The notes under the pieces: model-generated
What the model was told of the DNA's origin: nothing
Database searches by the model: none
The model's input: only the letters and a program-made list of their open reading frames with translations
Made by a program: the position numbers and the translations under genes
Sequence record: MT150133.1
Reading direction: 5' to 3' (one strand)
DNA from: Enterobacteria phage vB_EcoM_IME540
Length of the DNA: 64,000 nucleotides
In this document: piece after piece, positions 16,403 through 21,172 of the stretch
Layout: each line of letters begins with the position of its first letter
Position numbering within the stretch: the first letter of the stretch is position 1

Positions 16403-17581
16403 TTAAAAATATTTCTTGTACGATGCCATTACTTTTTCATCAACATCGTTATCAATTTGTGCTACAAGGTAAGAACTGATTTCCACTTCCTGAGGAGCAG
16501 CCTGTACAGCATCAGAGTTCAGGTATTCACGAATCCAAGGATAAGGATGGCGAGTAGGGGCATCAGTAATAGGACATGGTAAGCCACATTGCTTCATACG
16601 AGAAACTGTCAGGTAATCGACAAAAGCACCCATGTTCTGAGTATTTAATCCAGGGCAAGTGCCATCTTTGAACAGGTGAGCGGCCCATTCTTTTTCTTGA
16701 CGGTTAACTTCCATGAAAATATCAACCGCTTCTTGTTCACACTCTTGAGCAATTTTAACCCATTCGTCGCCATCAGTACCAAGCTGAAGTTGACGAATAA
16801 TGTACTGGGTGCCTTTAAGGTGGAGCTGTTCATCACGTGCAATAAACTTCATAATCTTAGCATTACCTTCCATGATTTCCATATTTTTGTGGAAGTTAAA
16901 GGTACATGCAAAAGATACATAAAAACGAATAGCTTCCAATGCGTTGATTACATGGAGGCAGAGGTAAAGAGAACGCATTAGTTCACGTTTCCAATAAATC
17001 TCATGCTCTATGACATCTTCAATATCATCTTCGTCTGCGTTAATTTCTTTTTGGTACTCAATATCAGCTTTAGCATTCTGCCAATATCTAGTTTTCTTTA
17101 AAACATCGTCATAATAACGGCCAATAGATTCAGCACGTTTCATGATGGCATCATCTAACAGAATTTCATCAAATACCTTAGATGGGTCTGTATAGAGGTT
17201 ACGCATGATATGGGTATATGAACGAGAGTGAATAGTTTCACTAAAGGTCCATGTTGCCACCCAAGTATCAAGGCTAGGGTCTGAAATCAAGGCTTGGAGT
17301 GCAGCAGAAGGAGCCCGTCCTTGGATACTATCCAGAAGTGATTGATACTTCAGGTTATTGGTAAAAATATTTTGTTGGAACTGTGGAAGCTTATTAAATT
17401 GAGCAGCATCCATCATCAAGTTGACTTCTTCTGGGCGCCAGAAAAAACTCAACTGCTTTTCACAAAGCTCTTCGAATACTTTATGACGTTGGATATCGTA
17501 ACGGGCAATACCCAATCCTGAACCAAAGAACATCGGTTCGACTAAAACATCAACTGGGGTGGTATTAAAAACTGTAGACAT
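16403..17581 (-). CDS. nrdB: ribonucleotide reductase small subunit
   Basis: Near-colinear with T4 NrdB; single uninterrupted ORF; start set at MSTVFN. Confidence 0.9.
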   Translation of the reverse strand: MSTVFNTTPVDVLVEPMFFGSGLGIARYDIQRHKVFEELCEKQLSFFWRPEEVNLMMDAAQFNKLPQFQQNIFTNNLKYQSLLDSIQGRAPSAALQALISDPSLDTWVATWTFSETIHSRSYTHIMRNLYTDPSKVFDEILLDDAIMKRAESIGRYYDDVLKKTRYWQNAKADIEYQKEINADEDDIEDVIEHEIYWKRELMRSLYLCLHVINALEAIRFYVSFACTFNFHKNMEIMEGNAKIMKFIARDEQLHLKGTQYIIRQLQLGTDGDEWVKIAQECEQEAVDIFMEVNRQEKEWAAHLFKDGTCPGLNTQNMGAFVDYLTVSRMKQCGLPCPITDAPTRHPYPWIREYLNSDAVQAAPQEVEISSYLVAQIDNDVDEKVMASYKKYF

Positions 17582-17634
17582 ATTATTCTCATTTGTTAGT
17601 GACTCATCCATGAGTCAATTATAATCAGATTTTA

Positions 17635-19890
17635 TTAAAGCTTACATGCTGCACAATCGTCGGCTTTAGGAGTTTCGATTTCGTAGTCATCAGTACCAGA
17701 GCCATCTCGGGTATTATGATAGTAAAGGTTCTTACCGCCGTAGTACCAGAAATACAGCAGGTCATCAAGCATTACCGACATCGGAACTTTTCCTTTTGGG
17801 AAAATCTGTGGGTCGTAATATGTATTCGCTGATGCTGATTGACACACCCATTTCAACGCTATTGCCACTTGGGTAAGATAAGGTTTATTACCTTTCTTAG
17901 CAAGGGTCCAAGCGTAATCGTAGAGTCCTTGGTTATGTTCTACATTAGGAACTACCTGACGGAAGTTACCTTCTTTAGATTCTTTAATACTTACCGGACC
18001 ACGTGGAGGTTCGATACCGTTTGTAGAGTTGGAAACCTGGCTGCTTGATTCACACGGCATAAGTGCTGATAATGTGCTATTACGGATGCCATGTTTAGCC
18101 AAGTCTTCCCGCAACGACGCCCAGTCACAAACATAGTTAGGGGCTGCGATTTGGTCAATCTTTTTATTGTACCAGTCGATAGGTAATTCGCCTCGAGACC
18201 ATTTAGTGTCTGAATAATACTCGCAAGGTCCTTTTTCTTCGGCCAACCTGATTGATGCTCGGATAAGTCCATATTGTAATCTCTCAAACAGTTCATGAGT
18301 TAAATCGTTTGCGTCTTCATAAGAAGCAAAGTTGCTTGCTAACCAAGCGGCATAGTTCGTAACACCAACACCCAGGTTGCGACGTTTCTTGGCCTTCAGA
18401 GCTTCAGGAACAGGATAATCTTGATAGTCCAACAGGTTATCAAGTGCACGTACTTGTACTTCAGCCAGCTCGTTGATTTTGTCTTGGTCCTGCCAATCGA
18501 AGTTATCCAATACGAATGCAGACAACGTACACAAACCAATTTCAGCGTCAGGACTATTCACGTCAGTAGTCGGGATAGCAATTTCACAACACAAGTTGCT
18601 CTGACGAATAGGAGCTTTTTCACGAATAAATGGTGTGAAGTTGTTAGTGTTATCAACGAACTGAGGATAAATTCGTGCAGTGCCTGAACGTTCAGTCATG
18701 AACAATTCGAAAAGGTCGCGTGCCTTAATACGTTTCTTACGAATACTAGGGTCTTTTTCTGCGGCTTCATACAATTCACGGAAACGGTCTTGGTCTTCGA
18801 AATAAGAATAGTAAAGCTCACCACCCATTTCATGAGGACTAAACAACGTGATGTAATCATTTTTACCGAAACGTTCCATCATAAGGTCGTTCATCTGGAT
18901 TCCGTAGTCCATATGGCGAATACGGTTCTCATCGACACCTTTGTTGTTTTTCAGAACGAGCAGATTTTCAACTTCCAAATGCCAAATAGGATAATAAGCA
19001 GTAGCAGCGCCGCCACGGATTCCACCTTGTGAACATGATTTAACAGCAGTCTGGAAATGTTTCCAGAATGGAATAACACCGGTATGCTTGACTTCGCCCA
19101 TGCCAATACGAGAACCTTCAGCACGAATCATACCAACGTTGATACCAATACCGGCACGTTTAGAAATGTATTCAATTATTGAGTTAGCAGTTTTGTTAAT
19201 AGATTTCAGTGAGTCGCCTGCTTCAATAACCACACAAGAACTAAATTGACGGGTTGGTGTACGTGCTCCAGCCATAATAGGAGTTGGTAATGAAACCTGA
19301 CGGGTACTTACAGCATCATAAAAACGAATAATATGTGCTAAACGATTACCTGGCTCGTCTTGGTGTAAGGCCATACCAATACACATGATAGCGAACTGAG
19401 GGGTTTCGTAGATTTTACCGGTTGTTTTATCTTTAACCAGATATTTCTCTTTAAGCTGCATCGCACCAGCATAAGTCAATTCGAAATCGCGTTCATGCTT
19501 TATATGAGATTCTAAGAAAGTAATTTCTTCTGCAGAATATCGAGACAACAATTCAGGGTCATATTTACCTTCGTTAACACAATAGGAAATATGGTCGATA
19601 AAGCTACGTGGTTCGAACTGCCCATAAACTTCTTTACGCAGTGCAAACATCAATTCTTTTGCAGCAACATATTGGTAATCAGGCTCTTCAACCGAGATAA
19701 GGTTGGCTGCTACCTTAACAGTCAGATTTTGGATATCTTTGGTAGTCATACCGTCACGAAGATGGGATTTGATTTCTTCGTATAATTCATAGGGGTCGAT
19801 TTGGGTTCCTTCACAGCCCCAAGTCAGAACTTTAATAATTTTTTGTGCGTCAAAATCTTGGGATACACCACTACTTTTTTGTACTTGCAT
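17635..19890 (-). CDS. nrdA: ribonucleotide reductase large subunit
   Basis: 751 aa, near-colinear with T4 NrdA. Confidence 0.93.
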   Translation of the reverse strand: MQVQKSSGVSQDFDAQKIIKVLTWGCEGTQIDPYELYEEIKSHLRDGMTTKDIQNLTVKVAANLISVEEPDYQYVAAKELMFALRKEVYGQFEPRSFIDHISYCVNEGKYDPELLSRYSAEEITFLESHIKHERDFELTYAGAMQLKEKYLVKDKTTGKIYETPQFAIMCIGMALHQDEPGNRLAHIIRFYDAVSTRQVSLPTPIMAGARTPTRQFSSCVVIEAGDSLKSINKTANSIIEYISKRAGIGINVGMIRAEGSRIGMGEVKHTGVIPFWKHFQTAVKSCSQGGIRGGAATAYYPIWHLEVENLLVLKNNKGVDENRIRHMDYGIQMNDLMMERFGKNDYITLFSPHEMGGELYYSYFEDQDRFRELYEAAEKDPSIRKKRIKARDLFELFMTERSGTARIYPQFVDNTNNFTPFIREKAPIRQSNLCCEIAIPTTDVNSPDAEIGLCTLSAFVLDNFDWQDQDKINELAEVQVRALDNLLDYQDYPVPEALKAKKRRNLGVGVTNYAAWLASNFASYEDANDLTHELFERLQYGLIRASIRLAEEKGPCEYYSDTKWSRGELPIDWYNKKIDQIAAPNYVCDWASLREDLAKHGIRNSTLSALMPCESSSQVSNSTNGIEPPRGPVSIKESKEGNFRQVVPNVEHNQGLYDYAWTLAKKGNKPYLTQVAIALKWVCQSASANTYYDPQIFPKGKVPMSVMLDDLLYFWYYGGKNLYYHNTRDGSGTDDYEIETPKADDCAACKL

Positions 19891-19920
19891 AATTTCCTCA
19901 ATATGTTAGGTTCTATAATT

Positions 19921-19945
19921 ATTCTATCATAGAACCTGTTAAGCA
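19921..19945 (-). promoter_or_regulatory. MotA-dependent middle promoter for nrdA
   Basis: MotA-box-like TGCTTAA, 12 bp, TAGAAT. Confidence 0.4.
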
Positions 19946-19961: not shown

Positions 19962-20025
19962 GGTCTTCTAATGAGAACGTGTCTTTGAAAAGTTTGTTAA
20001 CAACCAGGGCTATCACATCCCCATG

Positions 20026-20250
20026 TCAGTCCTTAGGTTTACAGGTACACGCTATACGCATACCTCTAAGGGTTTCAAGATGTTCTCTTTTAATTTCGCC
20101 CGATTTTATTTTAGCAATAAAGTATTCTTTAAAGTTCTTGATGTTTTCCTCGCGGGTTCCATCTTTAAATGGATTACCCCACATAGTTCCACGTTGGATA
20201 TTGACATCAAAGTCTTCTTTATACTTGTTAACAACTCTGCAAACTCTCAT
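20026..20250 (-). CDS. hypothetical protein (GNPF...CxC motif)
   Basis: ORF track 20026..20376 trimmed to internal ATG to avoid 65-nt overlap with td. Confidence 0.4.
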   Translation of the reverse strand: MRVCRVVNKYKEDFDVNIQRGTMWGNPFKDGTREENIKNFKEYFIAKIKSGEIKREHLETLRGMRIACTCKPKD

Positions 20251-20311
20251 TATAGCACCAAATTCAGCCCAACCATAATAACCAAAAACAGAGTACAGAT
20301 TATTTGAATTT

Positions 20312-21172
20312 TCATACAGCCATTTTAGCCTTAATAGTAGGGTGGGACTCGTAACCAATGAGTTTAAAATCTTCATGGACCATATGCTCTGTTACCCAAT
20401 GAAGCTGTAATGTCGTGCTCCAATCAGAGAATCCTTCAGGCCAATTAATTTCCAGTTCACAAAGCTCTTTAGGTTCGCGACGAAGAACTTCCTGGCATTG
20501 TTCAACGTGGTTAGAATAGATGTGTGTATTGCCGCCTGAGAACACTAAATCACCAGGAATAAGATTACACATCTTAGCCACAATATGCACAAGAGCGGCG
20601 TAAGAGGCGATATTAAATGGCAATCCTAAGAACACGTCAACAGAACGCTGGTACCACTGAAGGTCAAGATAACCGTTACGGACGTTGAACTGGTAAAAAC
20701 AATGGCATGGTGGTAAGGCCATCTGTTTTAGTTCGGCCGGGTTCCATGCTGATACGATTTGACGACGGTCATTAGGCATTTTCTTAATGCGTTCGACAAT
20801 CTCTACAACCTGGTCGATACCACCAAAATCTCGCCATTGTTTCCCGTATACAGGACCCAGTTCACCACTATGATAGCCTAGGTCTTTAGCCTGGTTTTCA
20901 TAGTTCTCGTCCCAAATAGTTTTACCTTCAATTAGCGAACCATGAGTACGTTGACGAAGGTCATTAACGTTGGTTGAACCTGAAAGGAACCAAAGGAGCT
21001 CAGCAATACAGGCTTTCCATGCTAATTTTTTAGTTGTTACTGCTGGGAAGCCCTGAGTTAAATCAAAACGTAATTTAGTACCGAACAGTGCAATTGTACC
21101 GGTGCCAGTACGGTCGTCAGTTTCGTAGCCATTTTCCAGGATATCTTTAATTAAAAATTGGTATTGTTTCAT
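20312..21172 (-). CDS. td: thymidylate synthase
   Basis: 286-aa continuous ORF with thymidylate synthase family sequence; no intron interruption. Confidence 0.92.

Follow-up and report, generated by a model that had tools for sequence, protein, structure and literature searches.

Uninterrupted td, nrdB and gene 39 in Enterobacteria phage vB_EcoM_IME540 and the nrdB intron of its relative Bp7

In phage T4, td and nrdB are interrupted by group I introns of 1017 and 598 nucleotides (nt), the former encoding the homing endonuclease I-TevI and the latter I-TevIII, and gene 39 is split by a mobA/60.1 cassette with a 50-nt bypass; the T4 record further contains mobE and nrdB.1 between nrdA and nrdB, as well as nrdA.2. 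In a 64,000-nt stretch of Enterobacteria phage vB_EcoM_IME540 (MT150133.1), referred to here at its full length as the window, the same three genes are continuous, which raises the question of whether their sites have never been invaded, have been cleared of earlier insertions, are protected, or conceal an interruption. An initial annotation had read td and nrdB as continuous open reading frames (ORFs) of 286 and 392 codons, whereas both T4 genes carry group I introns with homing endonucleases, and gene 39 as one 605-codon ORF, unlike the 39/60 pair of T4, and had concluded that the genome lacks these intron and insertion elements. The present analysis substantiates each of these points, with the nuance that the I-TevIII of T4 is itself truncated and defective. 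We consider it almost certain that td, nrdB and gene 39 are ordinary, intact and presumably functional genes with empty sites, a reading that rests on the observed continuity of the ORFs, their colinearity with T4, the absence of DNA from the elements and the rarity of these elements across phages. The sites would not have been invaded by either group I intron, that of td with I-TevI or that of nrdB with I-TevIII, nor by the MobA cassette with its 50-nt translational bypass, and Td, NrdB and gp39 would be produced by plain translation, involving no RNA splicing, ribosome hopping or two-fragment topoisomerase assembly.

Positions 16403–21172 of the window are 98.0% identical to Escherichia phage QL01, 97.9% identical to Bp7 and 93–97% identical to IME281, WG01, JS98 and JS10, all of which are JS98-type T4-like coliphages of the genus Dhakavirus. 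At an identity of at least 90%, the nrdB-td block is shared by 47 records, JS98 and JS10 among them. Judged by these identities, the window derives from a Dhakavirus (JS98-type) coliphage, a relative of phage T4.

td and nrdB are colinear with the spliced T4 genes

The td gene (20312–21172, minus strand) encodes a continuous thymidylate synthase of 286 residues, as established from the ORF, a Pfam match and the alignment to T4. The product matches the Thymidylat_synt profile (PF00303) over its full length (E = 1.8e-98, profile positions 1–266 of 266), holds the conserved motif PPCH and is identical to spliced T4 Td at 234 of 286 positions (82%), with gaps confined to the vicinity of the C-terminus and none at the intron site. 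The T4 splice junction was located by trying every junction near nt 549, which gave CTTGGGT/TAATTGAGG on the 5' side and ATAATG/CTACCG on the 3' side (slashes here and below mark junctions or insertion points), corresponding by count to an intron of 1017 nt. At the DNA level, the two genes align in two blocks that skip this intron, window nt 1–548 pairing with T4 nt 1–548 and window nt 553–735 with T4 nt 1570–1751. The equivalent point in the window lies between bases 20624 and 20623, across which the frame is unbroken (DVFLG/LPFNIAS).

The nrdB gene (16403–17581, minus strand) likewise encodes a continuous protein of 392 residues, the small subunit of class Ia ribonucleotide reductase, again on the basis of the ORF, Pfam and alignment. 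NrdB matches PF00268 (E = 3.2e-36), holds the conserved motif FSETIHSRSYTHI and is about 87% identical to T4 NrdB over the length of the latter. The ORF itself extends from an upstream ATG (16403–17611, 402 codons), but the start at 17611 was rejected, since T4 and QL01 begin at MSTVFNT and nothing corresponds to the additional upstream residues; the T4-equivalent MSTVFNT start at 17581 gives the 392 residues that are also annotated in QL01. From this start, the protein is colinear with spliced T4 NrdB, and SFA/CTFN is unbroken across the point at which the introns of T4 and Bp7 are inserted. Bases 16906 and 16905 flank the empty site, and the DNA alignment skips both the 598-nt intron of T4 and the 1088-nt intron of Bp7. 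The junction reads TCT TTT GCA/TGT ACC in the window and TCT TTT GCG T/GT ACC in T4; more broadly, the window has TCTTTTGCATGTACCTTTAAC around the site, whereas T4 has TCTTTTGCGT before and GTACCTTTAAC after the intron.

Gene 39 is a single ORF through the MobA insertion region

Gene 39 (49331–51148, minus strand) lies outside the interval 16403–21172, under which the initial annotation had listed it together with td and nrdB. From the ORF and its alignment to T4 gp39 and gp60, it encodes an unsplit large subunit of topoisomerase II of 605 residues, so that the GHKL ATPase and Toprim parts reside in one ORF. Residues 1–474 align to residues 1–473 of T4 gp39 (367/474 identical, 77%), whereas residues 478–605 align to residues 32–159 of T4 gp60 (99/128 identical, 77%). 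The product matches HATPase_c and DNA_gyraseB above the Pfam cut-offs and, weakly and below the cut-off, Toprim and TOPRIM_C, and its translation holds the conserved motifs TEGDSA and DADVDG.

The sequence DADVDG/TGSIYPSLL continues unbroken where T4 has the 50-nt gap. The corresponding DNA of the window reads GAT GGT ACT GGT TCG in frame, whereas T4 has GAT GGA, then the 50-nt gap, which starts with TAG, and then TTA GGT. Codons 475–492 (49673–49726) represent the stretch that is replaced by the MobA cassette in T4. In alignments and in blastn and tblastn searches, neither the 43-residue tail of T4 gp39, the first 31 residues of gp60, mobA nor 60.1 had a counterpart in the window, and of the features that characterize MobA elements, namely, a split topoisomerase gene, an HNH MobA ORF and a 50-nt gap following a GGA take-off codon, none was found in the window. 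Unsplit topoisomerase genes have been described as the "parental" form that occurs beside MobA-bearing relatives in every clade examined (Manning and Atkins, bioRxiv 10.1101/2022.08.31.505936). Like gene 39 of the window, the parental gene of the T2/RB14 type is a single ORF of about 605 codons through the MobA insertion region (residues 466–491, RB14 numbering), and nothing of substance differs between the two, although the window represents a different genus than the T-even examples.

Elements of T4 absent from the window

The T4 td intron, the T4 and Bp7 nrdB introns and the mobE/nrdB.1 region gave only short, chance-level blastn matches in the window (E of at least 0.015), and the sole meaningful match of the T4 39-60 insert was to the topoisomerase-homologous stretch at 49674–49717 (75% identity). 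I-TevIII, MobE, 60.1, nrdB.1 and nrdA.2 were not found in the window by tblastn, and no insertion resembling a known phage intron or an intron endonuclease ORF is present in td or nrdB. T4 has orthologs of td, nrdB and gene 39 (as genes 39 and 60), but its introns, mobE, nrdB.1, nrdA.2 and mobA/60.1 are all absent from the window. When the entire window was scanned against Rfam for group I introns at the gathering threshold, 0 hits were returned, but the same scan also returned 0 hits on the T4 and Bp7 loci that hold the known td and nrdB introns. Because this positive control failed, a clean scan cannot be used to exclude ORF-containing introns of the T4 td/nrdB type, and the absence of the elements rests on the alignments and the blastn and tblastn searches.

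The uninterrupted state is usual among T4-like phages

Searches of the phage records put the comparison with T4 into perspective. The nrdB-td block of the window matched 1001 phage records, the T4 td intron 260 (197 near full length), the nrdB intron 129 (85 near full length) and the mobA/gene 60 cassette 43. According to the 2010 review by Petrov et al. (PMC2993671), the three intron-borne endonuclease genes occur exclusively in the T-even cluster, and JS98 and JS10 lack homing endonuclease genes altogether. The close relatives QL01, IME281, JS98 and JS10 share the gene order of the window, and are 93–98% identical to it across the nrdB-td block; in these phages, too, td (861 nt), nrdB (1179 nt) and gene 39 (1818 nt) are free of interruptions. 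For T4-like phages, the absence of insertions from the three genes is therefore the norm and is already on record. T4 is the exception, because its elements match few phage records and the intron-borne genes are confined to the T-even cluster in the review, and it is the comparison with T4 that lent an unremarkable genome a special appearance. Beyond the absence of the selfish insertions of T4, the 3 genes hold no mechanism to be discovered, and the finding, already annotated in JS98-type genomes, is ordinary and of little consequence. Its value is for annotation: the 3 genes need no intron or bypass handling. Within Dhakavirus, we infer that the uninterrupted state is ancestral.

A recently gained nrdB intron in Bp7

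Among the 30 closest records, nrdB is interrupted only in Bp7, also a Dhakavirus, in which a 1088-nt intron with full-length I-TevIII sits at precisely the position left empty in the window (positions 3480–4590 of the Bp7 stretch). The sequence of this intron shares about 99% identity with the introns in RB3, RB6, RB10 and phiD1, whereas the coding sequence of nrdB diverges by about 18–23% between the Dhakavirus group and T4, as measured on the nrdB of the window. Past the insertion site, the nrdB genes of Bp7 and the window are 97.4% identical, and the region of the SegG-like gene is 100% identical.

For the co-conversion analysis, we considered sites at which the window and QL01 agree but differ from T4. 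Bp7 nrdB carries T4-type bases in a tract of approximately 70 base pairs (bp), from about −60 to +10 relative to the insertion point; outside this tract, nearly all such bases are of the Dhakavirus type. Such a tract is the signature of homing with co-conversion, which, together with the near-identity of the intron to T-even copies, marks the Bp7 intron as a recent gain and the window as representing the earlier state. The acquisition looks like a transfer between genera. At the informative sites near the insertion point, the window has the alleles of QL01 and no T4-type scar.

From −31 to +16, the homing site of I-TevIII in the window matches that of intron-less T4 at every base but −2, where a synonymous G to A substitution occurs; the enzyme cleaves at −14/−16 (PMC1865063). 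By sequence, the site is probably still cleavable by I-TevIII and could, we infer, still receive an intron. Whether the nrdB of the window is a live target in its pre-invasion state, such that the lineage documents an ongoing spread of the nrdB intron from Tequatrovirus to Dhakavirus, is in our estimation an evenly balanced matter. If so, it would amount to the intergeneric spread of the nrdB intron for which the 2010 review found no convincing evidence (PMC2993671). Placed side by side, the window and Bp7 clearly show nrdB before and after invasion by the intron, in a genus that does not belong to the T-even cluster.

Bp7 nrdB also differs from the window, QL01 and T4 by a 1-nt deletion located 492 nt upstream of the intron site, which splits the first part of the gene into 2 annotated coding sequences. 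The record probably contains a sequencing error at this point; otherwise, the nrdB of Bp7 would be broken.

Alternative explanations for the empty sites

The empty sites could be protected, in that the targets have drifted beyond cutting by I-TevI, I-TevIII or MobA, or the phage is genetically isolated from donors, an explanation that we regard as unlikely. The td target differs from that of T4 at 13 of 45 bases upstream and approximately 14 of 45 downstream of the insertion point, including positions −1, −4, +1, +3 and +6, and the exon DNA is only 74–82% identical to T4, which would limit homologous repair. I-TevI nevertheless tolerates many substitutions, which counts against protection. Despite its divergence, the td site retains the CNNNG cleavage motif at −27 to −23 (CAGCG versus CAACG), with I-TevI cleavage reported at −23/−25 (PMC2988022). 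In favor of isolation, the 2010 review noted no convincing case of these introns passing from one phage cluster to another (PMC2993671). However, the homing site of nrdB is less diverged from T4 than that of td and, over the −31 to +16 interval, differs by only 1 base, and the sister phage Bp7 has acquired the nrdB intron; thus, protection does not hold for the nrdB site, at least, nor is isolation complete.

Alternatively, ancestors of the phage had at least 1 of the elements and lost it exactly, after recombining with a relative that lacked the intron or with a copy already spliced. Such exact loss is an accepted part of the life cycle of mobile introns, degenerate copies exist, such as the truncated I-TevIII and the defective mobA of T4, and Bp7 shows that a member of the genus can hold the nrdB intron. 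Yet every other close relative listed is uninterrupted, and the Bp7 intron, with its approximately 99% identity to T-even introns and short T4-type co-conversion tract, is a recent arrival rather than a survivor. The QL01-type alleles around the nrdB site of the window, which lack a T4-type scar, also speak against such a loss, and we hold it to be very improbable. That the genes instead conceal a small insertion, a frameshift or an unspliced remnant missed by eye, the finding that by the initial annotation's own account would have overturned it, was looked for and rejected as having practically no likelihood, given single ORFs of the expected lengths, gap-free alignment of td, nrdB and gene 39 to their T4 counterparts across each exon junction or split site, and near-identity to the genes annotated in QL01, in length as well as in sequence.

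No observation speaks against the reading of 3 ordinary genes with uninvaded sites, although it has its limits. The functions of Td, NrdB and gp39 are deduced from conservation, and the Rfam null carries no weight. Furthermore, for td and gene 39, sites that were never invaded and sites that were invaded and then cleanly vacated long ago cannot be told apart, because the comparison included no close relative bearing those elements.

Three freestanding endonuclease genes

The initial annotation had also pointed to freestanding Seg-like genes elsewhere in the genome, and this was borne out by 3 endonuclease genes in the window. Alignment of the window with QL01, which lacks these genes, revealed 3 clean insertions of 649, 685 and 671 bp, each with an endonuclease gene. 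All 3 are intergenic and patchily distributed among close relatives (5, 11 and 3 records, respectively), and no record in the phage collection contains them all together; we recommend that they be labeled as sporadic endonuclease genes in annotations.

The gene between rnlA and denA (15321–15992, minus strand), which corresponds to the 649-bp insertion, is assigned to phrog_314 ("homing endonuclease") and occurs in 5 phage records only. The N-terminus of its product is GIY-YIG-like and 36–38% identical to that of the gene at 25394–26080; the product has no Pfam match, and its C-terminal half is uncharacterized. The ends of the gene overlap the denA stop and the rnlA start, indicative of tight packing.

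The second gene, located between genes 32 and 59 (24116–24760, minus strand; 685-bp insertion), encodes a homolog of T4 SegG with 58% identity, occupies the same position as SegG in T4 and is present in 11 phage records. The third, located between genes 59 and 33 (25394–26080, minus strand; 671-bp insertion), encodes an I-TevI-like GIY-YIG endonuclease with matches to PF01541 and PF19835, NUMOD3 and the I-TevI DNA-binding domain. Over its full length, the protein shares 28% identity with I-TevI, and the gene is found in 3 phage records only. The G+C content falls to 33% in the 24000–26000 interval, compared with about 39–41% elsewhere, and this drop coincides with the 2 endonuclease genes flanking gene 59, consistent with a foreign origin.

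Gene neighborhood and other differences from relatives

On the minus strand, the genes are arranged in the order rnlA, the extra ORF, denA, nrdB, nrdA, nrdA.1, td, frd, frd.1–frd.2 and 32, with rIIB, rIIA and gene 39 located further along the window. The nrdA ORF (17635–19890, minus strand) encodes the 751-residue large subunit of the reductase and is separated from nrdB by a spacer of only 53 nt (17582–17634), so that the slot occupied in T4 by mobE and nrdB.1 is empty in the window. In fDHCT2, another relative, an 804-nt gene annotated as "dam" lies between nrdA and nrdB (positions 1676–2479 of the fDHCT2 stretch). With "dam" in fDHCT2, mobE in T4 and an empty spacer in the window, the region between nrdA and nrdB seems to be a place where insertions recur.

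The nrdA.1 gene (DUF4326; 20026–20250, minus strand) is truncated in the window by a TGA stop at 20026–20028, a nonsense codon that sets the window apart from the group of QL01, IME281, JS98 and JS10; the corresponding codon is TGT (Cys) in QL01, Bp7, fDHCT2, IME281 and T4. The truncation removes the last 23 residues, from the conserved Cys-His of the C-H-G-D motif onward, and stems either from a nonsense mutation private to this phage or from an error in sequencing.

Other differences also separate the window from QL01. Several QL01 segments of 137–474 bp each are absent from the window, and the distal tail-fiber region (35011–36901) has no blastn alignment to QL01. Positions 53084–53333 of the window represent a 250-bp replacement relative to QL01, and a 318-bp insertion at 9204–9521 holds an ORF (9226–9531) assigned to phrog_12166, a family of unknown function.

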